From Abditibacterium sp. (lineage in GTDB: Bacteria; Armatimonadota; Abditibacteriia; Abditibacteriales; Abditibacteriaceae), in contig CBDASK010000003.1 in NCBI GenBank assembly GCA_965199495.1, positions 2,976,001-3,040,000 on the forward strand: a stretch of DNA of 64,000 nt, in the 5' to 3' direction. The notes under the pieces are model-generated. The model was not told the origin of the DNA. It searched no databases and worked only from the letters and a program-made list of their open reading frames with translations. The position numbers were made by a program, and so were the translations under genes. Every line of letters starts with the position of its first letter. Position 1 is the stretch's first letter. Positions 1,139 to 64,000 of the stretch are shown here, in pieces.

Positions 1139-2487
1139 TTTTGCAAAACTCGCCGCGTCATCCACAAGCCACCGCGCGGGCGCAGGGCCAGCGACGGGTG
1201 CATTTCTAACTTTTCTGCGGGCGCGAGTTCCAGCCGAAAGCGCGACGCGATGACCGAAAGCGCGATTTGGCCTTCCATCAACGCGAAACTCTGGCCGATG
1301 CACAATCGTGGCCCGCCGCCAAACGGATAATAAGCAAACTTTGGACGCTTTTGAACGGCGTCGGGTGCGAATCTTTGCGGCTCAAATTTTTCTGGTTCGG
1401 GCCAAAATTCCGGGTGCCGTTGCGTCAAAAACGGCAACACCACCACATCGCCGCCCGATTTGATCGGGTAGCCGCCCACGCAATCGTCCTCTCTGGCGGT
1501 GCGCGCCAACGCCCAGATCGGCGGATACAAGCGTAGCGATTCCTCGAAAACCATGCGCGCATAGGGCAATCGCGCCAAATCGTCGAACGTCGGCAAACGC
1601 CCGTTCAGCGTCGCGGCTTCAAGTTCCAGTTGCGCGCGCGCGTCGGGATTGCGCGCCAAAAGCGAAAATCCCCACGCCAACGCGTCGGCGCTGGTTTCGT
1701 GGCCAGCGACCAAAAGCGTTATCACTTCGTCGGCCAATTGTCGGTCGCTCATCGGTTCGCCGGTTTCCTCGTCGCGCGCGTCAATGAGGAGTTGCAGCAA
1801 GTCGTCGCCCTCGCCGTGGCTGCTGTTGCGCCGCGTGCGGGCGATGCCGATAATCCAATCGTCTAATCGGGCTTTGACCGCTAAAAATCGGCGGTTGCGC
1901 CGCGTCGGAACGTTTTCCGGCAGCGACAACGGATTGAATCGGTGTTCGACGTGCAGCATCGCCGCGTTCATCAAATGATGAAACTCGACGGCGCGCGCGC
2001 CGTGCAAGTCGGCGCCAAACAGCGCGCGCCCAGCGATTTGCAGCGCCAACTGCATCATTTCAGCAGCCACGTCGAACGGCTCGTCGGTCGGATGACGCGC
2101 CCAACGCTCGCACATTTCGTTTACGGTCTGGCTCATGAGCGGCGCCAAATCGGCGATGCGTGCGCGATGAAACGCCGGTTGCGCCAATCGCCGTTGTTTC
2201 AGCCACAAATCGCCCTCAGCGGTGAACAAACCTTGGCCGGTGAAAACCGACAAACGTTTGTAGAAAAATCCTTTGGGATAGTTCGTCCAATTGCCTTGCA
2301 AAACGCGCTCGGCGGCATCGGGCGCTACGCACAGCGTCAGATAATGTTCGCCGTGCCAGTGAACTCGCACGATGTCGCCGTGCTGGCGCCAGAACCGTTG
2401 ATAAAACCCCAACGGATCGCGCGCGGCGGCGCGCAGGTGACGCAGCAGAAAATAGCGCGGCGGCCCGGGCGCGTGCAGATCGGTCAT
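1135..2487 (-). CDS. Cytochrome P450
   Basis: AGHETS I-helix, EESLR (ExxR) and PFGGGPRLCIG heme-binding motifs. Confidence 0.97.
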   Translation of the reverse strand: MTDLHAPGPPRYFLLRHLRAAARDPLGFYQRFWRQHGDIVRVHWHGEHYLTLCVAPDAAERVLQGNWTNYPKGFFYKRLSVFTGQGLFTAEGDLWLKQRRLAQPAFHRARIADLAPLMSQTVNEMCERWARHPTDEPFDVAAEMMQLALQIAGRALFGADLHGARAVEFHHLMNAAMLHVEHRFNPLSLPENVPTRRNRRFLAVKARLDDWIIGIARTRRNSSHGEGDDLLQLLIDARDEETGEPMSDRQLADEVITLLVAGHETSADALAWGFSLLARNPDARAQLELEAATLNGRLPTFDDLARLPYARMVFEESLRLYPPIWALARTAREDDCVGGYPIKSGGDVVVLPFLTQRHPEFWPEPEKFEPQRFAPDAVQKRPKFAYYPFGGGPRLCIGQSFALMEGQIALSVIASRFRLELAPAEKLEMHPSLALRPRGGLWMTRRVLQN

Positions 2488-2502
2488 AGAGAAAGGATAA
2501 TG

Positions 2503-3597: not shown

Positions 3598-4140
3598 ATG
3601 AATAAATCTTCCACCTCTGCGCAGCCTGCGGACGAAAACGCCGGAGACGCCGCGCTCGATATGCTGAGCGATTCCGCGCCTGCAACAGAGCCACCCGCCA
3701 AACCCGCCGAAACCAAACCCGTCGCCGTGGCTGCTCCCGCCGCCGATGCGCCGCCAGTCGTCACCCAATTGGAAGTGGCCTGTCAAGGTTTGCAGATGCC
3801 CTCGGAAACCGACGCGCCGTTTCGCACGGTTTACTGGCCCTTAGAAAAATCCGACATCAAACCGTCCGAAGTCGCGTTGTATCTCACCGAAAACGCCGAT
3901 GCGACCGTCAAAACGCAGAGCATCAGCGAGTTTTTCAAAAACGCCGTTACGGTCGAAGATTGGATGAGCGACGACGAAAAAGCCGACGCCAAAAAGATGA
4001 GCGAGTTAGTCGAAGCTTTGAGCGCCGATTTGGAAAACCCGCGCGTTTATCTCATCGGCGAACGCGAAATCACCGCCGCGATTATCGGCAAAGTCCAAGG
4101 CGGTTTCGCGGGCGTGGTCACAACGATTGTTGAGACTTAG
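3598..4140 (+). CDS. nuiA: Nuclease A inhibitor (NuiA) family protein
   Basis: LEVACQGLQMPSETDAPF and the C-terminal VYLIGEREI...GVVTTIVET resemble NuiA; convergent with a NucA-type nuclease. Start could also be 3661. Confidence 0.8.
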   Translation: MNKSSTSAQPADENAGDAALDMLSDSAPATEPPAKPAETKPVAVAAPAADAPPVVTQLEVACQGLQMPSETDAPFRTVYWPLEKSDIKPSEVALYLTENADATVKTQSISEFFKNAVTVEDWMSDDEKADAKKMSELVEALSADLENPRVYLIGEREITAAIIGKVQGGFAGVVTTIVET

Positions 4141-4151
4141 AAAATTCCAAA

Positions 4152-5233: not shown

Positions 5234-6727
5234 TCAGTTCGCCAACTTAATCGAAATCGCCGTGACCGAGGCGGGCGGGAACGCCAAAGTCAAACTGTCG
5301 CCTTCGGCTTTAACCTCAATGGTTTCGGGCTGTAATGTGTCGGGGTCTTCAAAAGTATTGCACGCGCTCAGCGCCGGGGCGCTCATCTGGCGCGCGGTCA
5401 CGCTTTCGATTGTCAGGGACGGCAAAGCAATCGTCGCCTCGACCGGACTGCGCGCGCCGGTATTGACGACCGTGAGCGTCACTACGCCATTATGAATCGA
5501 GGCGCTGCCGCTCAGGCGCGGCAAACCGCCCGCCTCGCCGCTTTCCCACTGCGACTGCAACAAACGCCCGCCGCGATGGCCGCGATACAAATCGAAAACG
5601 TGATACGTCGGCGTTTTGATGGTTTGGTCGCCGCGCGTTTGCAGCAGACTTTGCAACACGTTGACGGTTTGCGCCAGCGTGGCTGCGGCCAATTTCTCCG
5701 ATTTTTCGTGGAACAGATCGAGCGTCATCGCCGCCGAAATCGCGTCGCGCAGCGTGTTCGATTGGTAAAGCAACGGCACGTCGTCGGATTCGGGCGCGTG
5801 CCAGATGCCCCATTCGCCCAGAATGAGTTGCGCGTCGCGACCGATGGGCGAGGCGTCCAAAATCGCGCGTTGCTCGTCAATTAAGTCGCCGATTTTCAGA
5901 CTTTCCTGCAACAATCCGTAATACTCGTCGAGCGTGAACTCGGTCGCAGAACCGAAATTGTTGCCCGTATTCCAGGTATAAAAATGCGCGTCCCAGCCGT
6001 CCAGACGCGGGCGGCGCGCGCTTTCGAGTTCCGCCAAAAACTCGCGCGTCCAACGCGCGGCTGCGGGCTGTTTGTTGCCGTCGGGGCCGCAACCGATGAG
6101 AAGCGGTTGCTGATTTTGGTAGCGCGGAAAATTGCTCTCGAAACGGCGATATTCGCGCGCGTAATCGGCGGCGGAGAACTTGCCGCCGCAATCCCAATTC
6201 TCGTTACCGATGCCCCAGAACTTCACGTCGAACGGCTTGGCGTCACCGTTTTTGGCACGCGCGTCGGACAAAGTGGTGCCGCCGGGAAAATTGCAATACT
6301 CGACCCAGTGCGCCATCTCGCGCGGTGAACCTGAACCGACGTTGGCGGCCAGCCACGGCTCGGCGCCGATTTCGCGGCACAAATCCATGAACTCGTGCGT
6401 GCCAAAGGCGTTGGTCTCGATTTCGTCGGCGCCCCAGCGCGAAGTCACGCGCGTCGGACGAGCTTCGCGCGGGCCGACGCCATCGCGCCAGTTGTAGGCA
6501 TCGGCGAAGCAGCCACCGGGCCAGCGCAGAACCGGCGGCGCCAATTCGCGTAGCGCGTCTAAGACGCCCGCGCGCAGACCGCGCTCGTTGGCAATTTCGG
6601 ATTCGGGGCCGACCCACAGGCCATCATAAACTAAGCTGCCCAGGTGTTCGATAAAGTGACCGTGCAAAAAAGGCGAAATCGAAGGGCCGGGTTCGCGCGC
6701 CATAACCGTGATCGTTGCGGAAAGCAT
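5234..6727 (-). CDS. Alpha-L-arabinofuranosidase, GH51
   Basis: GHFIEHLG, LRWPGGCFAD, WGIGNENW, EWGIW and AQTVNVLQ motifs. Confidence 0.93.
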   Translation of the reverse strand: MLSATITVMAREPGPSISPFLHGHFIEHLGSLVYDGLWVGPESEIANERGLRAGVLDALRELAPPVLRWPGGCFADAYNWRDGVGPREARPTRVTSRWGADEIETNAFGTHEFMDLCREIGAEPWLAANVGSGSPREMAHWVEYCNFPGGTTLSDARAKNGDAKPFDVKFWGIGNENWDCGGKFSAADYAREYRRFESNFPRYQNQQPLLIGCGPDGNKQPAAARWTREFLAELESARRPRLDGWDAHFYTWNTGNNFGSATEFTLDEYYGLLQESLKIGDLIDEQRAILDASPIGRDAQLILGEWGIWHAPESDDVPLLYQSNTLRDAISAAMTLDLFHEKSEKLAAATLAQTVNVLQSLLQTRGDQTIKTPTYHVFDLYRGHRGGRLLQSQWESGEAGGLPRLSGSASIHNGVVTLTVVNTGARSPVEATIALPSLTIESVTARQMSAPALSACNTFEDPDTLQPETIEVKAEGDSLTLAFPPASVTAISIKLAN

Positions 6728-7002: not shown

Positions 7003-7842
7003 ATGACCAACCAACAATGGCAACTCGCCGCGCGCGCCCGCTTGCAAAACGCCGATCACGAAGAAGCCCACTCGACCGCGCGCCTGTTGCTCGATTGGGC
7101 GACGCAGAAAAAACACGCCGCCCTCACATCACCCGACGAAATTTTGGACGCCGAAACTCTGGCGAAATTGGAAAGCGCGCTACAAAAATTAGAAGCGCGC
7201 GTGCCGCTTCCGCATATCACCGGGCGCGCCAATTTTTACGGTTTGGAATTTGAAGTTTCGCCCGCGACCTTAATTCCGCGCCCCGAAACCGAGTTTTTGG
7301 TCGAAGCCGTGTTGTCTCGCTTGCCGCTCGATGCGCGAGTCGCCGATTTGGGCACGGGGAGCGGTGCTATCGCTATTACAATCGCGAAAATGCGGCCCGA
7401 TTGCCAGTTGTGGGCGACCGATATTTCGTCCGATGCGCTCGAAGTCGCGCGTCGCAACGCGACGTGGCTGCATGCGCCGGTGACGTTCTTGGCGGGCACG
7501 CCCGATTGGTTGATGCCGCTACAAACCTTGGCGCCGCTCGATGCGATTGTTTCCAATCCGCCTTATATTGCCGCCGCCGACCTTGAGAATTTACAAAGCG
7601 AAGTGCGCCTTTACGAACCGCGCGGCGCTCTCGACGGCGGAGTTGACGGCCTCGATTCCTACCGAATTTTCGCTGCCAACGCGCGCGATTTGTTGGCGAA
7701 AAACGGATTTTGCGCGCTGGAATTGGGCGACAATCAGTGGCAAAGCGTGCATCAATTATTCGTGGCAAATGGTTGGTCTGTCGAATCGGCGGTTTATGAT
7801 TTGCAAAACATCCCGCGCGTTTTGGTGGTGCGCCGCGCGTGA
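7003..7842 (+). CDS. prmC: Release factor glutamine N5-methyltransferase
   Basis: TLIPRPETE, DLGTGSG, SNPPY and EPRGALDGG motifs. Confidence 0.95.
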   Translation: MTNQQWQLAARARLQNADHEEAHSTARLLLDWATQKKHAALTSPDEILDAETLAKLESALQKLEARVPLPHITGRANFYGLEFEVSPATLIPRPETEFLVEAVLSRLPLDARVADLGTGSGAIAITIAKMRPDCQLWATDISSDALEVARRNATWLHAPVTFLAGTPDWLMPLQTLAPLDAIVSNPPYIAAADLENLQSEVRLYEPRGALDGGVDGLDSYRIFAANARDLLAKNGFCALELGDNQWQSVHQLFVANGWSVESAVYDLQNIPRVLVVRRA

Positions 7843-8455: not shown

Positions 8456-9064
8456 ATGAATCCCGAACTCGAACGTTGGACACGCAATTTCGCCGAAAGC
8501 GAATACTTTTATGGTCACGATCCCGGCCCCGTGTCTCGTCGCGCGGTGCGTTATCATCGTCCGTTAGTGAGAAAAAACCAAACCGCCAATGCGCTGGATG
8601 TCGGTTGCGGCGAAGGCCAAGATTTGCTTTTTCTGGCGCAACAGGATTACGACGCGACAGGTTTAGATTTTACGCAAACCGGTATCGCCAAAGCGCGCGC
8701 GATTGTGGAAGACAACGGGCAGCGCGCGAATTTGGTTCAGGCTGATATTCTCGATTGGACGAGCGACGCGCAATTTGATTTGGTTTTGGCCGTCAACTGC
8801 TTGCAATTTCTTGGAAGTGACGCTCCGCGTGCGCTCAACCGCGTTAAAGAATTGGTAAAACCCGGCGGCGTCATTGGCCTTTCGATGTTCGCGCGCGACG
8901 ATGCAGCCACGCCGCCCGTTGACGAGACAATTTATCGTTGGACTTTGGACGAACTTCAACTGAACTTTAGCGGCTGGCAACCGTTAGAAGCCGCGCGTTT
9001 GTGGCAGTGGAACGGCGAAAGTCCACAACCCTTCGTTACCTTAATCGCGCGAGCGCCTTTTTAA
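8456..9064 (+). CDS. Class I SAM-dependent methyltransferase
   Basis: LDVGCGEG motif I; the upstream ATG at 8387 is rejected because that extension translates the REP. Confidence 0.88.
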   Translation: MNPELERWTRNFAESEYFYGHDPGPVSRRAVRYHRPLVRKNQTANALDVGCGEGQDLLFLAQQDYDATGLDFTQTGIAKARAIVEDNGQRANLVQADILDWTSDAQFDLVLAVNCLQFLGSDAPRALNRVKELVKPGGVIGLSMFARDDAATPPVDETIYRWTLDELQLNFSGWQPLEAARLWQWNGESPQPFVTLIARAPF

Positions 9065-10874: not shown

Positions 10875-11528
10875 ATGCCCGTTTTCGATTGGCAGCCGCT
10901 GCAACTTTCGTTAAAGGTCGCGTTGGGCGCCCTAATTCTCTGCTTTCCCCTCGGCGTGGCTGCGGCGCGCGCCATGAGCGGGCGGCACTTCCCGTTCAAA
11001 GATTGGCTCGAAGCAATTCTGTTGTTACCGCTGGTTTTGCCGCCGGTCGTGACCGGATTTGCATTATTAATAATTCTCGGCAAACGCGGGCCGCTTTTCG
11101 ATTTGCGCTTGCTGTTCACGCCGTGGGCGGCGGTCTTGGCGAGCGCGGTTGTGGCGTTTCCGCTCGTTTATCAAAGTGCGCGCGCGGCGTTTGCTTCGCG
11201 CTCGGACGAACTCGAAATGGTGGCGCGCTGTCTGGGCGCCTCGAAAGTGCGCGCATTTTGGACGATTGCTTTGCCGCTCGCGTGGCCCGGTTTGGCGGCG
11301 GGCGCGGTGTTGGCGTTCGCGCGCGCGTTGGGCGAGTTTGGCGCGACGGTGATGGTCGCGGGCAACGTCGCAGGTCGCACCTTGACGGCGCCAGTCGCGA
11401 TTTATTTCGCCGCCAATGACGGCGATACAGCCACGGCGGGCATCTACGCGGCAATTTTGGCGCTTTTCAATTTGTTATTCTTAATCGGCCTGAACGTCTA
11501 CCGGCGCCGCGCTTCTAACCTTCGATGA
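10875..11528 (+). CDS. modB: Molybdate ABC transporter permease
   Basis: LPLVLPPVVTG and FARALGEFGAT motifs. Confidence 0.95.
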   Translation: MPVFDWQPLQLSLKVALGALILCFPLGVAAARAMSGRHFPFKDWLEAILLLPLVLPPVVTGFALLIILGKRGPLFDLRLLFTPWAAVLASAVVAFPLVYQSARAAFASRSDELEMVARCLGASKVRAFWTIALPLAWPGLAAGAVLAFARALGEFGATVMVAGNVAGRTLTAPVAIYFAANDGDTATAGIYAAILALFNLLFLIGLNVYRRRASNLR

Positions 11529-12448: not shown

Positions 12449-12537
12449 ACCATGAAGGCGGATGAGAAAAAACCAATCGCGTCCCCTTTGCGTTTTCTTC
12501 GTGCCCGCCGTGGCTCATTGAAACTAAACTTTGGGCG

Positions 12538-12906: not shown

Positions 12907-14434
12907 ATTTTTATTCGGCGCGATTACAGCCGCGACCTTATGTTTGGCGATTCCCGCGACGGCGCAACCGCAAGTAGACGCCAACACTTCGCTCAACGAG
13001 ATGTTGCAGGCGCCCGACCAGCCGTTGCAACGCTTCTTCGCTTCGACCGATCCCAAAGGCAATAACGAAGATTACGTCACGATTGCGCCCGGCAAAACCG
13101 TGGCGCTCGACTTGACGCCGGGCACGCTGGAACGATTGTGGTCAACGGCGGGCGACATTCAAACCAACGATTTTCCGCAAGCGTTCGATCTGGCGCTGAT
13201 GACCGAGCCACGCCGCACCGTGCCGCTACTTTCCAACGGCGTGGCTGCGGTTGGTTTGCTTGAATCGAAGGCGTTTACTCTGACGCCCGAACTGAAATAT
13301 CCTTCGCTCAACACCATCAAAAATGGCGGCAAACTCATCGCGACTAATCGGGGCAAAAATCCGATTAAATGGTATTATCAAGTCACGATTCGTCCACCTT
13401 TGCTCAAGCTGTTGCCGGTTTTGCCAAAGGTCAGCGAAGTCGCCAAAAACCAGTTCACGCTGAAATTGGCGGCGGGACAAACCGGACTTATCAACGAGTG
13501 GAAAGACCCCGGCATGATTTACGAATTGCAGGTGGCTGTTGATACTGGCAGCGCCAAAGGCATCTTCGAGAAGTTGCGATTGCGCTGCGAATGGGAAGGC
13601 CAAGTCGGCGTTGACGTGCCGCTGATGAGCCTGACCGGTCAGGTCGCGGGCGACGAATTTATCTCCAACGCGGTCTGCGATTACGACGGCGCGCGTCTGC
13701 TGTTGAAATGGCCGATGCCGTTCAAAAGCGCGAAATTAAGTCTGGTCAACGAAACCGGCAAAGATTTGGATTTGGACGTGATGACGCGCGTGCAAACCTA
13801 CGACACCGAGCCGTCGGAGTTTCGTTTTTGCGCCGTCGAAAAATCGGCGACGCCGGTCAAAGGCGAGCCGGTTCCGATCTTGAAATTGAACGGGCAGGGC
13901 GCGTTCGTCGGGTTAGCTTTGGACATCAAAGCCGGGCCAGATTCGCGGCGCCGGACGTTTGGGTTTCTCGAAGGTAACGAAATCATCACCGCCGACGGCG
14001 AACGATTGGAAGGCACGGGAACCGAAGATTATTTCAGTTCGGCGTGGTATTATCCCGACAAACCATTCTTCCATCCGTTCGAGGGGCTGACGCGCAAAAC
14101 GACAACACCGCTCGAAGTTGCGGCCTACCGTTTTATGATTCCTGATGCGGTGCCGTTTCGCCGCGAACTCAAGTTCGATTTCGAGCATGGCAATGGTAAC
14201 AACGCGCCGGATATGCAGTGGAATTGGGTCGCGTTCTGGTATCAAAAGCCGCCGCTCAGCGCCACGCTGGAAAGTTCGGGTGACGGCAACGCGGTCGCGG
14301 CGCAACCCGGTTCGAGCGCGGATACGCCAATTATCGGCAACGACAAATGGAAATTGTGGCTTTCGGTTGGCGCGGGTGTGTTGTTAGGTTTGGGCGCGGC
14401 GCTGTTTCGTCGTATGCGGCGACGCAAGAGTTGA
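12890..14434 (+). CDS. DUF2961 (GH172-like) protein with signal peptide and C-terminal membrane anchor
   Basis: FLEGNE, GTGTEDYF and AYRFMIPDAVPF...FEHG motifs; C-terminal hydrophobic helix followed by RRMRRRKS. Confidence 0.85.
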   Translation: MARFIKFLFGAITAATLCLAIPATAQPQVDANTSLNEMLQAPDQPLQRFFASTDPKGNNEDYVTIAPGKTVALDLTPGTLERLWSTAGDIQTNDFPQAFDLALMTEPRRTVPLLSNGVAAVGLLESKAFTLTPELKYPSLNTIKNGGKLIATNRGKNPIKWYYQVTIRPPLLKLLPVLPKVSEVAKNQFTLKLAAGQTGLINEWKDPGMIYELQVAVDTGSAKGIFEKLRLRCEWEGQVGVDVPLMSLTGQVAGDEFISNAVCDYDGARLLLKWPMPFKSAKLSLVNETGKDLDLDVMTRVQTYDTEPSEFRFCAVEKSATPVKGEPVPILKLNGQGAFVGLALDIKAGPDSRRRTFGFLEGNEIITADGERLEGTGTEDYFSSAWYYPDKPFFHPFEGLTRKTTTPLEVAAYRFMIPDAVPFRRELKFDFEHGNGNNAPDMQWNWVAFWYQKPPLSATLESSGDGNAVAAQPGSSADTPIIGNDKWKLWLSVGAGVLLGLGAALFRRMRRRKS

Positions 14435-29257: not shown

Positions 29258-29340
29258 AGTAAACCTTTGTCCCTACATCAAAAAGTAAAATAGGAAGCGG
29301 CGCCGCTCTTTCGAGCCACGCCGCTTTTGTTCGGCTCAAC

Positions 29341-34378: not shown

Positions 34379-34674
34379 GATGAATTATAAATCAAAAATT
34401 CGGCAAATACGCCTGTTTGTTCTACCGAAAGGTTTTAGCCTTATTCTTCTGTTTGAATGCGTTACCTGTCAAGTCCCAACGCAAGTTTGATTTATTCGCG
34501 CAACCTTTGGGGAAATAATTTGATTTGTCCTCGCTACGACAGAGGACGCAACAGAACTGGGGGAGCCACGGCGGCGGCGCTTCGTTTAAAGACGGACTCG
34601 CCATTTCCTTGTATCATAGGAAGAACGCGCGCATTTTTTAACGCGCAGTTCTCTCGTTGAGTCCTTTAGATTAT

Positions 34675-52179: not shown

Positions 52180-55140
52180 ATGTCTTTCCAAGATTACCCC
52201 GATTTTCAACTGACGCGCGAAGTCGAACTTCCGCAAATCCGTGCCCGCGCGCTCGAATTTAAACATTTGCCGACCGGCTTGCGCTTGATGCACCTGGCGA
52301 CCGACGATCCCGAAAACTGTTTTGCGCTCGCGTTTGCCACACCGCCCGCCGATTCGAGTGGCGTGCCGCATATTCTGGAACACGCGGTTTTGGCGGGCAG
52401 CGAAAAGTTTCCCGTGCGCGAGCCGTTCTTTGAACTGATCAAAACTTCGCCCGCCGGTTTCATCAATGCGATGACATCGGACGTTTGGACGATTTATCCG
52501 ATTGCGACGACTTTGGCGCCCGACTTTTGGAATTTGGCCGAGGTTTACGCCGATGCCGTTTTTCATCCGCAACTGACGCGCGAGACGTTTGAGCGCGAAG
52601 GGCATCATTTGGAATTGGCCGAGCCGGGCGACGTGGCTGCTCCGCTCGTGCGTTCGGGCATCGTTTATAACGAGATGAAGGGCGCCTATTCCAATACCGA
52701 AATGGTCATCGGTTGGCGCTTGAAAAACAAGCTGTTTCCCGGTGGCGCTTTGGGCGTGGATTCGGGCGGCGATCCGCAGCATATTCCGAGTCTGGATTGG
52801 GAAGATTTGCGCGGATTTTACCAGCAGTTTTACGCGGCGGGCAACTGCTTTTTGATGGTTTACGGCGATATTTCAACCGAAGAACATCTGGCGTTTTGGA
52901 GCGAAAAACTCAAAGGCGCGCCACAAATGCCATCGCTGGCGGCGCGTCCAACATTCGATGCGTGGGAGCAGCCACGGCGCATCGAAGAAACTTTCGGTAT
53001 CGAGCCGGGCGCCGACGCGAGCGAGCAAACATTTCTTTCGATGCGCTGGCGTTGCGGTGACGGTTTGGATAAATACGAAGAAACCAAATGGGATGTGCTT
53101 TCTCGGCTTCTCAGTGGACACGATGGCGCACCGCTCAAAAAAGCGTTGGTTAGTTCCAAGTTGGGCGCCGATGTCATGGCGGCGGGCGTCGAGGGCGTCG
53201 AATCGGAATTGACGTTTCACGTCGCGGTCAAAGGCTCGGAACCGGAGCGCGCCGATGAATTTGAATCGTTCGTGTTGCGCACGCTCGAATCTATCGCCGA
53301 CGCCGGTTTTGGCGCCGAAGAAATCGGCACGGCGTTGCGTCAGGCGGCTTACGAAACTCTGGAAGTTCCGTCGCTGTTTCCGCTCCATTTGGCGATGGAC
53401 GCCGCGCGTTATGCGACGTGCGGCGCCGATCCGCTCGACGTGACGCGTTCGCGCGAAATGCTCGACAAAGTGCGCGCGCAAAGCGAAAGCGACGACCTGT
53501 TTTTTTCGTGCATGATTCGCGACGGATTGTTGAATAATCCGCATCGTTTGCTGACGGTTTTTCGGCCCGACGAAACGCAGGCCGCGCGCGAAGAAGCTCG
53601 CGAACGCGACGAATTGGCGGCGCTCAAAGCGACTTTGGACGAAGCGCAGTTGCGCGCGATTGACGAGCGCGCCCGCGAATTGGAAGCCTCGCAAAACGAG
53701 CCGAATTCGCCCGAAGCGTTGGCGACGTTGCCGCGTTTGGCCAAGGGCGATTTGCCCGACGCGCCGCGCGAAATTCCGACGCAAATCATCGAAACCGAAG
53801 GTTTTACCGTGTTGCGCAACGACGTATTTTCCAACGGCGTGGTTTATCTGCGCGCGGCGGTTGACGTGCGCGACTTGCCGCCGCATTTGTGGAAATGGGT
53901 GCCGCTGTGGGCCGAGGCGTTCGAGAAAATGGGCGCCGATGGCGAAAACTGGGCGACAACGGCGGCGCGGCGCGCCAAATATACCGGTAGTCTGGGCGTC
54001 GGGCCACGCGCGGTTACAAAGGCGCGGAGCGGCGTGCCGGTTGTTGACATCGAATTGTCGCTCAAAACGTTGGATGGCGATATCCACGGCGCTTTGGATT
54101 TGGTCGGCGATTTGTTGTGGAAACTCGACGCGACCGACCGCGAGCGTTTGCTCGAAATCGCCACGCAACGCGCGGCGGGTCTGCGCGACGATTTGGTCAA
54201 CGGCGCGATGACGACGGTGCAATTGGCGTCGGCGCAGAGCGTTTCGCCGGTCGGTTGGTTGCCCTATCTGTGGCATTCGCCGCTCGCGTTGAAATGGACG
54301 AAAGAATTGACCGGATCGTTTGCGGCCCAAGCCGACGAGATTATCGAAGGCATCAATGGCGTGCGCGACTTTTTGCTTCAGCGCGCGCGTTGGACGTGGA
54401 GTTTTACGGGCGGCGACGCACCGTTTGGCGCCTTTGAGAAACGTTTAAACGAGTGGGGCGGACAAATGAGCGGCGATGTTTTGCCCGGCGCCATCGAGCC
54501 GACGGCAGGACAGAGCGAAAGGGATGGTGGGCAAACGTTGCCGCAAATGCTCGGATTGGCAGCGCCTTTGGATGTTCAGTTTTGCGCGCAAAGTTTTAAG
54601 GCGCCCGCCGAATCCGATCAGCCGCTCGTTGATTTGGGATTGGCGTTGATGCGTTTCGATTATTTTCTGCCCGAAATTCGCTTGAAAGGCAACGCTTACG
54701 GCGGCGGCGGCAACTTGCGAGGCGAAGCAGGCGTGACGACGTTTTTCTCCTATCGCGACCCGCGTTTGAGCGAAACTTTGAATGTGTTCGCGGGCGCGCT
54801 CCCTTGGGCCAAAAAGCAAAAGTGGACGGACGACGATCTGGAACGCGCGTTGTTGGGCAATGTGGGCGACGCGGTTCCAGCGATTCGCCCGGCGGCTTCG
54901 ACGGCGAGCGCGATTCATCGTTATCGGCGCGGCGAAACCGCCGAAATGCGCGCCGAAAATTACGCGAAGAAGTTGGGCGCCAAAGCGTCGGATGTTCAAA
55001 GCACCCTCGTTGAATATTTAGAGGCCGAGTTGCCAAGCAGCCACGTCGCCGTGGCTGCATCGCGCGTGGCCTTGGAAAAAGCCAATGCCACGCGCGGAGA
55101 GCAGGGCAAAACGGTGTTGGAAATTCGCGATATGGTTTGA
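52180..55140 (+). CDS. M16C (presequence protease-like) metallopeptidase
   Basis: GVPHILEH, GIVYNEMKG, IRLKGNAYG and SYRDP motifs. Confidence 0.93.
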   Translation: MSFQDYPDFQLTREVELPQIRARALEFKHLPTGLRLMHLATDDPENCFALAFATPPADSSGVPHILEHAVLAGSEKFPVREPFFELIKTSPAGFINAMTSDVWTIYPIATTLAPDFWNLAEVYADAVFHPQLTRETFEREGHHLELAEPGDVAAPLVRSGIVYNEMKGAYSNTEMVIGWRLKNKLFPGGALGVDSGGDPQHIPSLDWEDLRGFYQQFYAAGNCFLMVYGDISTEEHLAFWSEKLKGAPQMPSLAARPTFDAWEQPRRIEETFGIEPGADASEQTFLSMRWRCGDGLDKYEETKWDVLSRLLSGHDGAPLKKALVSSKLGADVMAAGVEGVESELTFHVAVKGSEPERADEFESFVLRTLESIADAGFGAEEIGTALRQAAYETLEVPSLFPLHLAMDAARYATCGADPLDVTRSREMLDKVRAQSESDDLFFSCMIRDGLLNNPHRLLTVFRPDETQAAREEARERDELAALKATLDEAQLRAIDERARELEASQNEPNSPEALATLPRLAKGDLPDAPREIPTQIIETEGFTVLRNDVFSNGVVYLRAAVDVRDLPPHLWKWVPLWAEAFEKMGADGENWATTAARRAKYTGSLGVGPRAVTKARSGVPVVDIELSLKTLDGDIHGALDLVGDLLWKLDATDRERLLEIATQRAAGLRDDLVNGAMTTVQLASAQSVSPVGWLPYLWHSPLALKWTKELTGSFAAQADEIIEGINGVRDFLLQRARWTWSFTGGDAPFGAFEKRLNEWGGQMSGDVLPGAIEPTAGQSERDGGQTLPQMLGLAAPLDVQFCAQSFKAPAESDQPLVDLGLALMRFDYFLPEIRLKGNAYGGGGNLRGEAGVTTFFSYRDPRLSETLNVFAGALPWAKKQKWTDDDLERALLGNVGDAVPAIRPAASTASAIHRYRRGETAEMRAENYAKKLGAKASDVQSTLVEYLEAELPSSHVAVAASRVALEKANATRGEQGKTVLEIRDMV

Positions 55141-57593: not shown

Positions 57594-58715
57594 TTGGAAC
57601 CCGTTCGTTTTGGAGTAATTGGAGTCGGTGGCATGGGCGGCAATCACGCGCGTTCTTTCGCCAAAGTTGAGGAAGTGACCCTGGTCGCCGTGGCTGATGT
57701 CAACGCTGAGACCACCGCCAAAGTCGCGCAGGAAACCGGCGCGAAAGGCTTTGCCAGTGCCGAAGAACTCATCGAGAAAGGCGATGTCGAAGCGATTTTG
57801 ATCGCGACGCCGCACTTTTTTCATCCGCCGGTCGCGATGCACGCCGCCAAACATGGCGTTCACGTTTTGAGCGAAAAACCAATCGCTGTCACCGTTGCGG
57901 CGGCGGACGCGATGGTCGAGGCCGCCGACCAAGCGGGCACTTTGCTGGGCGTCGTTTTTCAGCAGCGTTTGGAAGATAAACGCGTCAAAATGAAGCAGAT
58001 GATTGATGACGGTCTGCTGGGCGAACTGCACCGCATTTCCGTTGTCGCGCCGTGGTATCGCCCGCAGGCTTATTACAATTCGGGCGCGTGGCGCGGCACC
58101 TGGAAGGGCGAGGGCGGCGGCATTTTGATGAATCAGGCGCCGCACTCGATGGATCAGTTCATCTGGCTGATGGGCGAAACTCCACGCAACGTGCAGGCGA
58201 TGGCGCAGACGCGTTTGCACGACATCGAAGTCGAAAACACCGCGATGGCGCTGGTGGATTTCGGGCCGGGCAAAAGCGGCTATTTTTATGCCTCGACCGC
58301 CGATATTCCCGGCGGCGAACGCGTCGAACTGGCAGGCGACAAAGGTTTGCTCACGCTCGATCAAAACGGTTTGCGTTTCTACGAACTCGAAATGCCCTTG
58401 TCGCAGCATCTCGCGACGGCAACAGGCAATTTCGATTCTCCCAAAGGTTCGTGGCGCGATGTCGAAATTGATGTGCCCAACGGCAGTCATACCAATGTGG
58501 TGCGCGCGTTTTGTCGCGCGGTGCGCGCCAACGATGATTCGCTCATGGTAGCCACCGGGCGCGATGGCGTCAAAGCTCTCGAACTCGCCAACGCGATTTT
58601 GATGGCGGGCTACACTCGTCGCGAAGTTCAATTTCCCATTGACCGCAACGCCGTTGACGCGATGCTCAAAAGTTTGCAAGAGGGCGTCACGCCCGAACAA
58701 TTAAAAATTGGATAA
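57594..58715 (+). CDS. Gfo/Idh/MocA family oxidoreductase
   Basis: GVGGMG, ATPHFFH, HVLSEKP and GGGILMNQAPH motifs; AAGGAG ribosome-binding site before TTG. Confidence 0.93.
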   Translation: MEPVRFGVIGVGGMGGNHARSFAKVEEVTLVAVADVNAETTAKVAQETGAKGFASAEELIEKGDVEAILIATPHFFHPPVAMHAAKHGVHVLSEKPIAVTVAAADAMVEAADQAGTLLGVVFQQRLEDKRVKMKQMIDDGLLGELHRISVVAPWYRPQAYYNSGAWRGTWKGEGGGILMNQAPHSMDQFIWLMGETPRNVQAMAQTRLHDIEVENTAMALVDFGPGKSGYFYASTADIPGGERVELAGDKGLLTLDQNGLRFYELEMPLSQHLATATGNFDSPKGSWRDVEIDVPNGSHTNVVRAFCRAVRANDDSLMVATGRDGVKALELANAILMAGYTRREVQFPIDRNAVDAMLKSLQEGVTPEQLKIG

Positions 58716-58826: not shown

Positions 58827-59759
58827 ATGCGCATTGTAATTACTGGTGGAGCCGGGTTTCTCGGTTCCCATTTAACCGACCGTTGTCTGGCCGAGGGGCA
58901 TGAAGTCGTTGTTGTTGATAACTTGGTTACGGGCAACCTCGACAATCTGGCTCATATCCATAATCCGAAATTGTCGGTTCTCGATCAGAATATTTCGGAT
59001 GAAATTAAAGTGGACGGCGACGTTGATTTCATTCTTCACTTTGCTTCTCCCGCCTCGCCGGTAGATTATCTCGAACTGCCGATTCAAACGCTCAAAGTCG
59101 GTGCTTTGGGCACGCACAACGCGCTGGGATTGGCGCGCGCCAAGGGCGCCGGTTTGCTGCTGGCTTCGACGTCCGAGGTTTATGGCGATCCCCTCGTTCA
59201 TCCGCAAAAAGAGGATTACTGGGGCAACGTCAACCCGATTGGCCCCCGTGGCTGCTATGACGAAGCGAAGCGTTTTGCCGAGGCCATCACGATGGCTTAC
59301 CACAAAATGCACGCGATTAATACCAAAATCGTGCGCATCTTCAACACTTATGGGCCACGCATGCGCCTGCGCGATGGACGTATCGTGCCCAACTTTATGC
59401 GTCAGGCATTAACCGGCGAGCCACTGACGGTTTATGGGGATGGCAGCCAGACGCGCTCGTTTTGCTACGCGACCGATTTGATTGACGGCATCTATCGTTT
59501 GATGCTTTCGGACGAACATCTGCCGACCAACATCGGCAACCCGACCGAATTCACCGTTTTAGAATTCGCCCACGAAGTGTTGAAATTATCGGGTTCCAAA
59601 TCGGAGATCATTTTCGAGCCTTTGCCGCAGGACGACCCAAAACAACGCAAACCCGATATTTCCAAGGCGCGCGAAATTTTGGGTTGGGAACCGACAATCG
59701 AACTGCAAGAGGGACTGGCAAAAACCTTGGAATATTTCCAAACGCGGTTGGATTTATAA
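58827..59759 (+). CDS. UDP-glucuronic acid decarboxylase family SDR
   Basis: [26 protein letters not shown] and YDEAKR motifs. Confidence 0.93.
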
Positions 59760-60244: not shown

Positions 60245-63200
60245 ATGTTCAGAACTCAACTCAGCAGCGCACTTTCGCGCCTGTTGTGCTTTGTGGCGTT
60301 TGCCCTCTGTTTTGGCGGCGTCGCCCACGCGCAGACAATCACTATTACCCCGCCCACTCTCAACGAAAGAGTCGAAGGTAACGTCCAAACTTTCGTGCTG
60401 ACGACTGACCGTATTGTCACACAGCGCCTCACGGTGAGAGTTGATAGTTTCGAGGGTACGGCTTTCGAGGCCGCCCGCCCGGACGGTAGGCCCGCCGATT
60501 ACACGGGATTTCACCAAGATGTGACCTTTGAAATTGGGCGGCAGAGTGTATCCGTTCCAATTCAAACCATCGCCGATACTCGTTACGAGTTTGACGAAAC
60601 ATTTGGTATTCAAGTAACGAACCCTCGTTTTAACGGTGTTGCCACCAGCGCTGTTACATTTTCGGGAAGCAACTTTTCTACGACGACGATTCCAAACGAT
60701 GATGGCCCTCCAACGCTGACTTTGCGCCGGCCCGATGCCGTCATCGAAGGCGCCGCAACCGATCCCAAAAAACTTGTACGCGTTATTGTTGACATTGATG
60801 TGCCCGCCGAACGTCCCTTGCAGGTCGCGTTCGATACTTCCGATAACACTACCCAACCCGGCTCGATGGATGGCACGGCCACTGCTGGTCAGGATTATCA
60901 GGAAGTCAAAAATAACATCGTGACAATTCCTGCGAATGCGCAGCAATATACCTATCCGCCGCCAGCGGCGCCAACAGATCCGCCAGGTTCTTTTTCATCC
61001 GATCCCAATGCGCAGGGCGTTTTCATCTTGGGCGATAACGTTTATGAAGGCGATGAAGCGTTCACCTTGACCGCGAGATATTCACCCGCTCTCGTCAATA
61101 CTACCCCCACCAGTACCATCATTACTATTACGGATGATGACCTGCCCTCTTTCACCCTCACCGGTGGCCGCACGTTTGAAGGCGGCAACATTCCTTTTGT
61201 CATCACCCTGAACGACATCACAACTGGTCAGCCCATCGCTGCCAAAGCGCCGATTACGTTCACCTACGCTCTTGACAATGGCCCGAATAACCAAGCGGAA
61301 TTTGGAACAGACTTCACCAACACGCCTGGGCCCGACGCCAACAAGAATACAGGGACTTTTGTTATTCCCATAGGTAACACGAATGCGACGATCAATATTC
61401 CCACTCTGACAGACACCATTGCCGAACCCACTGAGCAATTTAGCTTTCGCATAGTCAGTGTGACTGGCGCTCGTCTCTCTCCAAATAGTAGCGCCACGGG
61501 AACAATTGACAATGTGAATGGCAACCCGGTTATCAGCATTTCCAATGCTTCGGTTGTCGAAGGCACGGGCGGCGTCACCAATTTGGTGTTCACCGTGAAT
61601 TTGTCCAATTCTTCGACGCAGCAGATCACCGCTCAATACGAAACTGTGGATGATAACAGCGTGCCCGCCGCACAGCGAGCCACGTCGGGTGTGGACTACG
61701 CCGCGCAACGTGGCACCGTTACCTTCCCCGCTGTGACTGGAGCTGCGGGTGCTGCCAACACCACTCAGTCAATCTCGATTCCGATTACCACGGACAACAT
61801 CAACGAACAGAACGAAAATTTCCGCATCCGTTTGTTTAACCCGGCGGGCGGCTTCGCTTCGTTCTCCAACAACGTGCCCGAAGTCTTCGCAACCGGCACC
61901 ATCATTGATGATGATTCTGCTGGCACTGTCAGCGTCGCCAAAACCGAAGTTTCGGTGCTTGAGAACGTTCAGGGCGGCATGGTTAACGTCTTGGTCAACT
62001 TCGTGCCCAATGGCACGCCCGCTCGTCCGGTAACCGTGGATTTCACCACGTTGCCGGGGACGGCAGTTCAAGCTGGTCAGCGGGATTACTTTGGTAAAAC
62101 TGGTCGCGTGACTTTCCAGCCCCAGGCTGGTAACTCGTCGGTTGCGATTCCTATCGAGATTATAAACGATGATATTCGCGAAGGCGATGAAACCTTCACC
62201 GTGCGTTTGACGGCAGTGGATGGAGCGACTCTCGATCCCGATAACAGTGACACCGTTGTCACAATTGTAGATGACGATCCGTTGCCTGTTGTCAGCGTTT
62301 TTCCCGCCAGCCCAATTCGTGAAGACGGCGGCATCAAAAACTTTGTCGTTGCGATCAAAGGCAAATCGCAGGCTCCCGTGACCGTTAATTACGCTTTTGG
62401 CGACATCAAAGACACTGCCACGCCAAATCTTGATTATGAAGCGGTGGATGCGCTTAATCCTTTGTCTGGTTCGAAAACGTTCACCCTGGGTGGCCCCGTT
62501 TCGTATTTCGTGCCCGTCAGAATTTTGCAGGACAATATCGCTGAGGGCAATGAAACCTTGACCTTGACCCTGTCCAAAGATCAGAACGACCTCAGCTTTT
62601 CGTTAGACCCGAAAGCCACCCAATCGGTTGTGACCATCGTGGACGACGACCCAACGCCCGAACTTACGATCAGTGACGCGCAGGTTTTGGAAGGTAGTAC
62701 TGGCGACATTAACAGCGGAAACGTGCTGACTTTCAACGTTTCGTTGAGCCGTCCCAGTTCGCGTCCCTCCAGCTTCACTTACTCGACGCTCAACTTGCGG
62801 CAGGCCAACTGCAAACCTTCCAACGGGTGCGATGTCGCTTCCGATGACGATTACGCCAGCGTGCGCAACGTCGTAGTGACGATTCCCGCTGGCCAGACTA
62901 CCGCGACCATCACAGTCAGAGTGGCTCCCGATACGGGCAACGAATACAATGAGCAGTTCGCGGTTGTCGCTCGCTCGCTCAACAACACGGTGCCTTCGGT
63001 GACTGCGGCCACCAGCAGTTCGGAACAGCGTTTTGGCACGGTCGCCTTCGGCACCATCGTCAACGATGATCCCGGTGGCGCCATCACCCTCTCTGGCCCG
63101 TTCACCGATAGCACGGGAACAACGTTATCGGGCGATCTTATCGAAGGCTATCAGCGTAACGCGACTACCGCGAGAATTGGTAGCGTAGGTAATTTCCGAG

Positions 63201-64000
63201 TGACTTTGCCCACGCCTGCTCGTCGCACGGTGACGGTGAACTACAAGATCACCGGTTCGGTGTCCGATAGCGATATCAACGATCTCACGACCGGCCCCGG
63301 CAGAACCGGCGACCGCACAGGTGCAGTCACCTTCTTTGCTGGCGACACGACGCGCAACATCGTGTTGCGCGCTGCGGCTGACAATGTGAGAGAAGATTTG
63401 GAAAGCCTGAGAGTGACGATTTCGATCAACGATGTCAATGGTGCCAACAGCTATACCGTTGATCCCAAGGCATCGTTCGCGACGACAAATATCGTGGATC
63501 GCACGCCTTCCATTGACTCCTTCGCCCCAGCCACTGGCTTCCCAGCTTATGGGAGCGTCGCGGCCTCGAAGGTGACGATCAATGGTCGTCTGTTGCGCAC
63601 TGATGGCAACCCGCGCGTGGCTGCCGTTATCTTCGGCGGAGGCGGCGAAGTTGGACTGGGCGGCATTCAATATACCTCGGATAACTCACTCGTTGTGAGC
63701 GTGCCCGACAATGCCAAGAGTGGGCCGATTACGCTGCGGTTGACGGACGGCACGACCACTCTCGCTTTCCCAAGCGTGGCCGGAAGTGCAACGGCTCCCA
63801 ACTTCATCGTGCAACCAGTGATTCAGAGCTTTACGCCCACTTCGGGCACGCGTGGCGCAGTGACGATTACCATTACGGGCCGCAACTTCAAGGATGGTTT
63901 GAATCCCGTCACTGGAGTCCAGTTCAGCAATGGTGTTGTCGTTTCCAACGTGACTCCGGTTAGCGACACACAAATTCAAGTGACGGCTCCCGCCGCCGCT
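60245..64000 (+). CDS. Giant exported Calx-beta repeat and IPT/TIG domain surface protein; runs off the window
   Basis: Absent from the ORF track because no stop lies in the window. MFRTQLSSALSRLLCFVAFALCFGGVAHAQ signal peptide, about 8 repeats of DY...TF...I..D...E.(D/N)E.F...TI.DDD, then SIDSFAPATG and VIQSFTPTSG...TITGRNF. Alternative in-frame ATG at 60182. Confidence 0.88.
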   Translation, partial: MFRTQLSSALSRLLCFVAFALCFGGVAHAQTITITPPTLNERVEGNVQTFVLTTDRIVTQRLTVRVDSFEGTAFEAARPDGRPADYTGFHQDVTFEIGRQSVSVPIQTIADTRYEFDETFGIQVTNPRFNGVATSAVTFSGSNFSTTTIPNDDGPPTLTLRRPDAVIEGAATDPKKLVRVIVDIDVPAERPLQVAFDTSDNTTQPGSMDGTATAGQDYQEVKNNIVTIPANAQQYTYPPPAAPTDPPGSFSSDPNAQGVFILGDNVYEGDEAFTLTARYSPALVNTTPTSTIITITDDDLPSFTLTGGRTFEGGNIPFVITLNDITTGQPIAAKAPITFTYALDNGPNNQAEFGTDFTNTPGPDANKNTGTFVIPIGNTNATINIPTLTDTIAEPTEQFSFRIVSVTGARLSPNSSATGTIDNVNGNPVISISNASVVEGTGGVTNLVFTVNLSNSSTQQITAQYETVDDNSVPAAQRATSGVDYAAQRGTVTFPAVTGAAGAANTTQSISIPITTDNINEQNENFRIRLFNPAGGFASFSNNVPEVFATGTIIDDDSAGTVSVAKTEVSVLENVQGGMVNVLVNFVPNGTPARPVTVDFTTLPGTAVQAGQRDYFGKTGRVTFQPQAGNSSVAIPIEIINDDIREGDETFTVRLTAVDGATLDPDNSDTVVTIVDDDPLPVVSVFPASPIREDGGIKNFVVAIKGKSQAPVTVNYAFGDIKDTATPNLDYEAVDALNPLSGSKTFTLGGPVSYFVPVRILQDNIAEGNETLTLTLSKDQNDLSFSLDPKATQSVVTIVDDDPTPELTISDAQVLEGSTGDINSGNVLTFNVSLSRPSSRPSSFTYSTLNLRQANCKPSNGCDVASDDDYASVRNVVVTIPAGQTTATITVRVAPDTGNEYNEQFAVVARSLNNTVPSVTAATSSSEQRFGTVAFGTIVNDDPGGAITLSGPFTDSTGTTLSGDLIEGYQRNATTARIGSVGNFRVTLPTPARRTVTVNYKITGSVSDSDINDLTTGPGRTGDRTGAVTFFAGDTTRNIVLRAAADNVREDLESLRVTISINDVNGANSYTVDPKASFATTNIVDRTPSIDSFAPATGFPAYGSVAASKVTINGRLLRTDGNPRVAAVIFGGGGEVGLGGIQYTSDNSLVVSVPDNAKSGPITLRLTDGTTTLAFPSVAGSATAPNFIVQPVIQSFTPTSGTRGAVTITITGRNFKDGLNPVTGVQFSNGVVVSNVTPVSDTQIQVTAPAAA

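Follow-up and report, generated by a model that had tools for sequence, protein, structure and literature searches.

The closest described systems to the element considered here are the DNA uptake sequence (DUS) of the Neisseriaceae and the uptake signal sequence (USS) of the Pasteurellaceae. The DUS is described as a word of 10-12 nt that is read by the minor pilin ComP and that exists in eight dialects (PMC3630211, PMC2397512), all but one of which have TGA in one frame (PMC3630211). The USS is described in a Hin-type and an Apl-type form, with the minor pilin PpdA/ComN predicted as its receptor (PMC12616744, PMC1852404, PMC2346458), and close inverted pairs are given as a trait of both DUS and USS (PMC1852404). 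A 2025 paper names the Neisseriaceae and the Pasteurellaceae as the sole families known to have uptake sequences (PMC12616744). A different kind of repeat, NTS/SRM, is described as ~30-nt hairpin repeats around particular genes that are cut by Ssn single-strand nucleases (PMC11893778). Here we analyze a 64,000-nt stretch of the chromosome of an Abditibacterium genome, from a soil-type bacterium of the little-known phylum Abditibacteriota (G000:C3:2976001-3040000, where G000 is this genome and C3 its chromosome), referred to below as the window, in which an earlier note had singled out the 9-mer CGTGGCTGC as a candidate lineage-specific Chi site, FtsK-orienting polar sequence (KOPS) or DNA uptake signal. 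This 9-mer turns out to be part of a longer word that is spread over the entire chromosome, and we favor, with modest confidence, the reading that this word is a DNA uptake sequence with dialects, a candidate for the Abditibacterium clade.

The G000 assembly consists of three contigs, which are the 4.72 Mb chromosome (C3), a 24.7 kb plasmid (C1) and a 64.6 kb phage (C2). Across the chromosome CGTGGCTGC is present 1,780 times (863 on the plus and 917 on the minus strand), with one copy on C1 and two on C2, so the signal is chromosome-wide and not confined to the window, as the earlier note had supposed. When the 1,780 occurrences are aligned, C is conserved at position -3 and G at -2, position -1 is free and +9 has a weak preference for T/A. 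The flanks past ~13 nt carry almost no information. The limits of the word were set with a 15-mer consensus in which all positions but one were held fixed and each was varied in turn. The positions C-G-x-C-G-T-G-G-C-T are 98-100% invariant, followed by G at 86%, C at 54% and T at 76%. The true word is thus CG-N-CGTGGCT-(G)(C)(W), and CGTGGCTGC is a slice of it whose register is shifted three bases rightwards. In the following, "core site" refers to the 10-mer CG-N-CGTGGCT, "9-mer" to CGTGGCTGC and "8-mer" to CGTGGCTG. The chromosome holds 2,913 core sites (1,444 plus, 1,469 minus), a density of 0.617 per kb or about one per 1.6 kb, with C at the N position in 1,374 of them, G in 863, A in 562 and T in 114.

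The over-representation of this word is large by several measures. The 12-mer CGCCGTGGCTGC is the commonest 12-mer, with 690 copies versus 3.9 expected from an order-3 Markov model and ~1.3 from base composition. Under an order-5 Markov model four of the top five over-represented 9-mers genome-wide are overlapping 9-mers of the word, with CGTGGCTGC ranking first at 1,780 observed versus 499 expected. Note that Markov models of orders 6 and 7 absorb the word, for which reason their expected CGTGGCTGC counts are 1,256 and 1,679, respectively. The reverse complement of the word differs from the word itself, so it is not palindromic, and an iterated palindrome of the HIP type was rejected on this ground.

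At core positions 3-9, variants with a single mismatch do not exceed background. T to C at position 5, for example, has 0 observed versus 9.2 expected, 1 versus 10.9 and 2 versus 5.5 in three versions of the 12-mer. This deficit is what conversion of near matches into matches would produce, and it fits a sequence-specific mutational or repair drive that has no functional reader, for instance methyltransferase-linked repair of the very-short-patch type, or templated conversion. We regard such a drive as improbable. The depleted variants are not limited to the C-to-T and G-to-A deamination products that methylation-linked patch repair predicts, and a drive purely internal to the cell would be expected to affect the resident plasmid and older integrated elements too, where the word is rare (see below). 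The repair drives known from E. coli moreover enrich their words by less than ~2-fold, versus 20- to 30-fold for the word described here.

We addressed the contribution of codon usage and protein sequence with gene calls from our own rough caller, which yielded 3,861 calls covering 87.5% of the sequence as coding and which miscalled some genes, for example the P450 at 1135-2487 of the window. Codons were permuted among positions with the same amino acid inside each gene. The earlier note had named disappearance of the enrichment under a shuffle that preserves codons and amino acids as the result that would count against it; the enrichment survives this control, as the excess of the 9-mer is lost in the shuffled genes. 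Specifically, the 9-mer occurs 855 times in sense orientation versus 52 +/- 8 after synonymous shuffling and 809 times in antisense orientation versus 44 +/- 7 (20 shuffles each), the 12-mer 300 times in sense and 342 times in antisense versus 4.7 in both cases, and the 10-mer core 2,728 times in genes versus 136 +/- 7 (10 shuffles). Core sites are also enriched 30-fold in non-coding DNA (178 versus 5.9 expected). The view of the earlier note that no single peptide motif explains the sites is therefore borne out, given that shuffling removes the excess and that non-coding DNA is enriched as well.

Within genes the word is slightly commoner in sense (1,506) than in antisense orientation (1,221). 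The preferred frames are nnC GNC GTG GCT, used by 1,274 of the 1,506 sense sites, and nnA GCC ACG NCG, used by 883 of the 1,221 antisense sites. Although 10.4% of Ala codons are GCT, GTG-GCT is used for V-A dipeptides 2,127 times versus 443 expected, and the word fills 34% of x-[GADV]-V-A contexts in the main sense frame as well as 34% of x-A-T-[APST] contexts in the main antisense frame. The excess is imposed on the DNA, equally in both orientations, and is placed where the cost to protein is least. Both favored frames encode Ala-rich peptides, which is the one feature that would be expected if the word were an artefact of codon usage, of an amino-acid motif, of a repeated gene family or of a mobile repeat. 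We consider an artefact of this type scarcely credible, given that the excess vanishes under synonymous and whole-codon shuffles, that non-coding DNA is 30-fold enriched, that the flanks past ~13 nt are uninformative, that the sites are spread over 1,866 of the 3,778 called chromosomal genes and that relatives with the same proteins do not have the word. Accordingly, a codon or peptide artefact was ruled out by the shuffles, and a mobile repeat or insertion by the uninformative flanks together with orthologous alignments in which only substitutions are seen.

The spacing of core sites departs from random. Gaps of 200 nt or less between core sites number 229 versus 338 expected, and among the 78 pairs that lie within 40 nt of each other 76 are inverted, of which 57 are in genes, 16 are intergenic and three are at gene edges. 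Twelve of the intergenic pairs are convergent, and several of these form terminator-like hairpins directly past gene ends, one of them followed by a T run. Direct pairs within 40 nt are nearly absent (2 versus 76 inverted), and the total of close pairs is near the random value of ~71. A repetitive extragenic palindrome (REP), a miniature inverted-repeat transposable element (MITE) or an NTS/SRM hairpin repeat was rejected as an explanation of the word, considering that 94% of the sites are in genes, that there are no conserved flanks and that the sites originate by substitution and not insertion. The Ssn/NTS-type repeat in particular was set aside as a different kind of element.

The word is rare on mobile DNA. 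There is one core site in the 24.7 kb of C1 and two in the 64.6 kb of C2, which corresponds to 0.03-0.04 per kb and is ~17 times rarer than on the chromosome. C1 was identified as a plasmid by its Pfam matches to RepA_C, a TraG/TraD-type coupling protein and ArdC, and C2 as a phage, assembled as a separate replicon, by a Mu-type portal, an S49 protease and a 2,400-aa tape measure protein. On the chromosome, when composition was measured in 10-kb bins with the word masked, the density of core sites was 0.326 per kb in the 10% most atypical bins versus 0.670 in the typical half, and eight 10-kb bins had no core site versus 1.0 expected. Pfam searches of the larger open reading frames (ORFs) in five motif-free stretches found large serine recombinases in three of the five, and also ParB-N/DUF932, E1-E2-JAB plus GTPase conflict-system domains, a prophage capsid and portal, and IS605 OrfB.

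Two of the motif-free islands, at G000:C3:429-449 kb and 506-526 kb, contain E1-E2-JAB sets, multiubiquitin and GAP1/DO-GTPase domains beside a serine recombinase and ParB/DUF932, and are likely integrated elements that carry defence genes. Elsewhere on the chromosome, outside of the window, there is a CRISPR-like array with 131 repeats and a 66-nt period (G000:C3:2766481-2775004), which explains one motif-free gap as well as a set of artefactual "polar" 8-mers.

Taken together, the maintenance of the word acts on the DNA itself, on either orientation and both within and between genes, and mobile DNA is nearly free of it. These features would be equally well accounted for if the word marked the whole genome as self for a chromosome-encoded DNA-binding system that works within the cell and is unrelated to DNA uptake, for example in nucleoid organization, in segregation or in discrimination of self from foreign DNA during defence. 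Strand symmetry, DNA-level maintenance, rarity on mobile DNA and the dialects of sister species described below all fit such a reader, the shortage of gaps of 200 nt or less is as expected for spaced binding sites, and competence genes do not separate genomes that carry the word from those that do not. We hold this to be a possible but rather unlikely explanation. No candidate reader was found, and we know of no such bacterial system that drives a non-palindromic word of 10-13 nt to ~3,000 copies with a near-invariant core. The sole bacterial cases with the full set of traits are, as described in the 2025 paper, uptake sequences (PMC12616744). A more specific version, in which the word would be an intracellular self mark such that the marked chromosome is treated differently from unmarked plasmid, phage and island DNA, with a specificity that drifts between sister species, we rate as unlikely, slightly more so than an intracellular reader in general.

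We next turn to the distribution of the word among relatives, where the earlier note's expectation of lineage specificity is confirmed. The 8-mer CGTGGCTG is enriched in three of 27 family genomes, with 3,091 copies in G000 and 2,676 and 3,503 copies in the family relatives G011 and G004, and the remaining 24 are at control level. This amounts to an enrichment in the three carriers of roughly 8-11-fold over the reversed control (~300-320 each). Among 41 genomes of the phylum the 12-mer CGCCGTGGCTGC is found 690 times in G000, 510 times in G011 and 154 times in G004, and 0 to 16 times in the other 38, like the reversed control. The three carriers are mutual nearest relatives as judged by PilD, at 95% and 85% identity versus 60-65% for the three other genomes compared, and the named relatives of the G000 FtsK show a similar split in identity (81-91% versus 52-65%). 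No dispersed over-represented word was found in 40-100 kb samples of six further members of the genus, G002, G003, G006, G007, G009 and G012. An apparent word in G006 was rejected as dispersed, as it is a 15-nt tandem repeat at a single place (unit ~GTTCCCGTTCCGGCT, at least nine copies; L034-L038).

The word of G004 differs in its flanks. A logo made from 123 kb of this genome reads (cgt)a-GGA-CGTGGCT-GGTGTC on both strands (53 to 49), and GGACGTGGCTGG is found 1,520 times in G004 (805 plus, 715 minus), 14 times in G000, four times in G011 and once each in G006 and G012. GGA-CGTGGCT-GGTGT is thus a dialect of the G000 word, in the Neisseriaceae sense of a common core, here CGTGGCTG, with differing flanks (as described in PMC3630211). 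The G004-type prefix is already present in G000 as a minor variant, with 38 copies of GGACGTGGCTGC versus 0.5 expected. As a separate observation, the dialect ...CGTGGCTGGTGTC of G004 (stretches L024-L028 and L002) holds GCTGGTG, seven of the eight bases of the E. coli Chi site, and is near strand-symmetric (805:715).

Orthologous alignments indicate how the sites arose. We compared G000 with a G011-like set, made up of five G011 stretches together with L001 and L019, over 59 kb aligned at 86% identity, and 31 of 43 G000 core sites (72%) are retained there versus 32% of arbitrary 10-mers. Against G004 (74 kb at 80% identity) only 8 of 57 core sites (14%) are retained versus 20% of controls; scoring the shared 7-mer in this alignment gives 13 common sites, 68 sites private to G000 and 21 private to G004. 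Where a site is present in G000 alone, its difference from the relatives always consists of point substitutions, which are often synonymous, and never of insertions. This combination of substitution-only differences, 72% retention among close relatives and 14% retention across to G004 shows that the word was built in place, is held among close relatives and is turned over across the dialect change.

With ~3,000 near-invariant copies, no orientation rule, DNA-level maintenance in favored frames, inverted pairs, some of them in terminators, rarity on mobile DNA and phylogenetic dialects, the word most likely is an uptake sequence by comparison with published descriptions of DUS and USS (PMC3630211, PMC2397512, PMC1852404, PMC2346458), and the uptake-signal candidate of the earlier note fits, at the sequence level, every hallmark that we computed. 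From a DNA-level word with dialects onward, the steps that lead to uptake are ones that we infer from this analysis. The word would act as a species tag on double-stranded DNA and would be read at the cell surface or in the periplasm by a component of the type IV pilus/ComEA apparatus, presumably a pilin-like or ComEA-like protein. Cells would thereby favor DNA of their own kind during uptake, and this biased uptake followed by homologous recombination would drive the word to about one per 1.6 kb. Such an organism would be naturally competent.

The gene content of G000 is compatible with this scheme. The genome encodes ComEC, DprA, a ComEA-type HHH_3 protein, eight secretin matches and eight T2SSE ATPase matches, and it has an operon pilB-(orf)-pilT-pilC-pilD that is followed by four pilin-like genes of 308, 618, 316 and 403 aa. 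Between G000 and G011 the four pilin-like proteins are 50-85% identical, versus 92-97% for PilB, PilT, PilC and PilD. The most divergent of these is the 618-aa protein (G000:C3:868592-870448, L062:12592-14448), which is 50% identical between the two genomes and for which an AlphaFold model is beta-rich, with a predicted local distance difference test score (pLDDT) of 88.2 and a predicted TM-score (pTM) of 0.88.

There are, however, several observations that weigh against an uptake sequence. An intracellular reader, too, would be in keeping with every hallmark apart from the competence genes. ComEC, DprA and ComEA are present in both non-carriers checked (G006 and G012), as is the secretin, and the pilus operon is present in the non-carriers G006, G012 and G009. 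Gene content therefore does not separate carriers from non-carriers, and the competence and pilus genes are compatible with the uptake reading without favoring it over others. In line with this, carriers and non-carriers share the synteny of the pilB-pilD operon and its four pilin-like genes, which gives no presence/absence signal. A search for a receptor among the four pilin-like genes singled out none of them and identified no ComP homologue. The 618-aa protein diverges to 50% although G000 and G011 share a dialect, and a Foldseek comparison of its model with the PDB gave no usable match (TM-scores of at most 0.12 relative to the query). Only 6% of the sites touch non-coding DNA, which makes up 12.5% of the genome. 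No near-identical tract was found between G000 and G011-like DNA (0 of 238 windows of 300 bp at ≥98% identity, over 79 kb), thus no direct trace of recent exchange is seen. Finally, the depletion in acquired DNA that the earlier note had proposed as a check is seen on the plasmid and the phage as well as in the prophage and the integrated elements, but hardly in DNA that fails to align between relatives, with 0.40 per kb in G011 DNA not aligning to G000 versus 0.56 in shared DNA, and 0.39 versus 0.40 in G004. Outside of obvious mobile elements the depletion is therefore not clear.

The earlier note had leaned towards Chi or KOPS on the basis of a 20:7 strand skew of the 9-mer in the window, and had itself stated that absence of a polarity switch at the origin (ori) and terminus (ter) of replication would exclude these two. 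Chi and KOPS are short asymmetric words in genes that are strongly replichore-polarized and modestly over-represented. In the G000 chromosome GC skew is weak and genes have no strand bias, and a polarity partition was obtained from GGGCAGGG, which we take to match the KOPS consensus. This sequence has 225 copies with a clean two-arm polarity that switches at ~1.95 and ~4.34 Mb, which puts 204 of the 225 (90.7%) on the leading strand. The first of these switches is close to both the GC-skew minimum (1.92 Mb) and dnaA (2.03 Mb). GGGCAGGG is likely the FtsK-orienting word of G000, and it defines ori and ter despite the weak GC skew.

With the same partition the leading-strand share of the core is 49.7% (1,448 of 2,913, p = 0.77), that of the 12-mer 49.6% and that of the 9-mer 53.4%. 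A cumulative-range measure that requires no partition places the 8-mers of the word at ranks 9,039 to 9,415 of 9,440 for polarity. The word thus has no polarity switch at ori/ter, which rules out the Chi/KOPS lean on the very ground the earlier note had given. We accordingly hold it to be very improbable that the word serves RecBCD/AddAB as a Chi site or orients FtsK in the manner of KOPS. What speaks for such a role is the 20:7 skew, an FtsK with a gamma domain that is encoded in the window at 46635-49526 and a frame of 1,433 aa that contains a PDDEXK_1 nuclease domain and could be part of an AddAB/AdnAB-like enzyme. Against these stand the unpolarized core, its even split in the window, the KOPS role held by GGGCAGGG and a search of G000 that found no RecC.

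The skew itself is explained by the sites in the window, for which coordinates are given below as positions within its 64,000 nt. All 27 CGTGGCTGC sites listed by the earlier note (20 plus, 7 minus) are located exactly where it had placed them, versus a mean of 0.84 and a maximum of 4 in 100 dinucleotide-preserving shuffles, and its count of about 16 further 8-mer sites is also correct, as CGTGGCTG totals 43 (27 + 16, with the 16 divided into 7 plus and 9 minus). Likewise, all 27 are in ORFs, on both gene strands and in several frames (peptides VAA, AAT, WL, QPR, SH and RGC). This includes the site at 2063-2071, which is outside of our rough gene calls yet within the Pfam-supported P450 ORF 1135-2487(-). 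The skew of the 9-mer has a binomial p of 0.019, and none of 73 tiled 64-kb windows is as extreme. The 10-mer core, in contrast, has 43 sites in the window (shuffle mean 1.01) that divide into 22 plus and 21 minus, so the 20:7 skew comes from the register chosen plus chance. The sites are as follows.

1812..1821, plus strand: core site CGCCGTGGCT, with the 9-mer at 1815
2065..2074, minus strand: core site CGACGTGGCT, with the 9-mer at 2063, within the P450 ORF 1135-2487(-)
3723..3732, plus strand: core site CGCCGTGGCT, with the 9-mer at 3726
5678..5686, plus strand: 9-mer CGTGGCTGC without the CG-N prefix (CAG upstream)
7460..7469, plus strand: core site CGACGTGGCT, with the 9-mer at 7463
8905..8914, minus strand: core site CGGCGTGGCT, with the 9-mer at 8903
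10952..10961, plus strand: core site CGGCGTGGCT, with the 9-mer at 10955
11429..11438, minus strand: core site CGCCGTGGCT, followed by GT and hence no 9-mer site
12506..12515, plus strand: core site CGCCGTGGCT, intergenic by the rough gene calls
13206..13215, minus strand: core site CGGCGTGGCT
13237..13246, plus strand: core site CGGCGTGGCT, with the 9-mer at 13240; inverted partner at 13206-13215, 21 nt away
14941..14949, plus strand: 9-mer without the CG-N prefix
15917..15925, minus strand: 9-mer without the CG-N prefix
18039..18048, plus strand: core site CGCCGTGGCT, with the 9-mer at 18042
20377..20386, plus strand: core site CGCCGTGGCT
22394..22403, plus strand: core site CGCCGTGGCT, with the 9-mer at 22397
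23682..23691, plus strand: core site CGCCGTGGCT, with the 9-mer at 23685
25816..25825, minus strand: core site CGACGTGGCT, with the 9-mer at 25814
26391..26400, plus strand: core site CGCCGTGGCT, with the 9-mer at 26394; convergent inverted pair with 26409-26418
26409..26418, minus strand: core site CGGCGTGGCT, inverted partner of 26391-26400, within a gene
27168..27177, plus strand: core site CGCCGTGGCT
29314..29323, minus strand: core site CGGCGTGGCT, intergenic by the rough gene calls
30142..30151, plus strand: core site CGACGTGGCT
31289..31298, minus strand: core site CGGCGTGGCT
31973..31982, plus strand: core site CGCCGTGGCT, with the 9-mer at 31976
34564..34573, minus strand: core site CGCCGTGGCT, intergenic by the rough gene calls
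35430..35439, plus strand: core site CGCCGTGGCT
36714..36723, minus strand: core site CGCCGTGGCT
38940..38949, minus strand: core site CGGCGTGGCT
40666..40674, plus strand: 9-mer without the CG-N prefix
40884..40893, plus strand: core site CGCCGTGGCT
42318..42327, minus strand: core site CGGCGTGGCT
42960..42969, plus strand: core site CGGCGTGGCT, with the 9-mer at 42963
44651..44660, minus strand: core site CGGCGTGGCT
45497..45506, minus strand: core site CGGCGTGGCT; 7-mer core retained at the matching position in the relatives L019 and L002
46254..46262, plus strand: 9-mer without the CG-N prefix
47608..47617, minus strand: core site CGCCGTGGCT in ftsK; 7-mer core retained in L001 and L002
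47999..48008, minus strand: core site CGCCGTGGCT in ftsK; retained in L001, missing in L002
49040..49049, plus strand: core site CGCCGTGGCT in ftsK; in relatives one or two bases are substituted here and there is no indel
50342..50351, plus strand: core site CGACGTGGCT, with the 9-mer at 50345
50924..50933, minus strand: core site CGCCGTGGCT, with the 9-mer at 50922
51604..51613, minus strand: core site CGCCGTGGCT
52629..52638, plus strand: core site CGACGTGGCT, with the 9-mer at 52632
52970..52979, minus strand: core site CGCCGTGGCT, with the 9-mer at 52968
55039..55048, minus strand: core site CGACGTGGCT, with the 9-mer at 55037; left half of the overlapping divergent dyad 55039-55056
55047..55056, plus strand: core site CGCCGTGGCT, with the 9-mer at 55050; right half of the dyad, its first CG common with 55039-55048
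57686..57695, plus strand: core site CGCCGTGGCT
59247..59255, plus strand: 9-mer without the CG-N prefix
61678..61687, minus strand: core site CGACGTGGCT
63616..63624, plus strand: 9-mer without the CG-N prefix

Two other repeats were seen along the way. The window has four inverted pairs of CCCCTCTGT, at 1007-1112, 14460-14503, 18796-18937 and 20474-20615 (8 copies versus 0.08 expected), three of which are in or overlap intergenic gaps, whereas a called gene contains the 1007/1104 pair. These copies resemble a small family of hairpin or MITE-like repeats that is unrelated to the main word. There are also ~120 copies of CGTAGAGACACCG on G000:C3 (61 plus, 59 minus), often as two copies that are 83-109 nt apart (e.g. 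83228/83311 and 161576/161660), which is probably a MITE or REP-type repeat.

A literature search found neither the word nor its complement, with supplementary files lying outside of that search, and found nothing, in part as judged by title and abstract, that links Abditibacteriota to uptake sequences, competence or genome motifs. If the word is indeed an uptake sequence, then it would be the first outside of the Proteobacteria and the third independent case, in a phylum that is barely cultured. Sequence-specific uptake of self DNA would then be something that evolves repeatedly, and natural transformation would be implied in Abditibacteriota. It would also offer new material on a long-standing question, namely whether words of this kind owe their spread to molecular drive or to selection for recombination. 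The two sister species, whose words have a fixed core but different flanks, form a natural experiment through which the reader might be found. Already now the word sharply distinguishes native from mobile DNA in these genomes, and it could ease the delivery of DNA into these organisms. Should the uptake reading be wrong, a bacterial DNA code that spans the genome would be left to explain, and that would be still more interesting.

Comparison with known systems places the word nearest to the uptake sequences. Like Chi and KOPS it is short, asymmetric and embedded in genes, but unlike these it is unpolarized and is 20- to 500-fold over-represented. HIP1 of cyanobacteria is an octamer palindrome that is linked to a cognate methyltransferase and whose function is unsettled. 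The word resembles it in being a hyper-abundant short word that is located in genes, in all frames, and spread by substitutions, but it differs from HIP1 in its asymmetry. With NTS/SRM, which is described as linked to natural transformation in Neisseria, it has in common hundreds of copies per genome; the Abditibacterium word, however, is a non-hairpin word of 10-13 nt that is evenly spread through genes.

The likeness to the USS is considerably closer, with two dialects that have a common inner core and track subclades, one orientation and frame that is favored in genes, and inverted pairs in terminators. The differences are that USS flanks are AT-rich and extended whereas the Abditibacterium flanks past 13 nt are uninformative, and that the phylum is a different one. 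The DUS is likewise a short non-palindromic word found roughly once per 1-2 kb that has few one-off variants, that has clade-specific dialects tracking phylogeny around an invariant core, that forms close inverted pairs and dyads, some of them in terminators, and that occurs together with type IV pilus and ComEA/ComEC/DprA genes. In contrast to the DUS, the Abditibacterium word has an unrelated sequence and belongs to Abditibacteriota instead of Betaproteobacteria; 94% of its sites are intragenic versus a coding fraction of 87.5%, only 16 of its 76 inverted pairs are intergenic and it has no stop codon in any of the six frames. What would be new, and we think this somewhat probable on the present analysis, is the DUS/USS phenomenon in a new phylum with an unrelated sequence and a mostly intragenic placement. 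To our knowledge this set of traits matches nothing else in bacteria besides the DUS and the USS.

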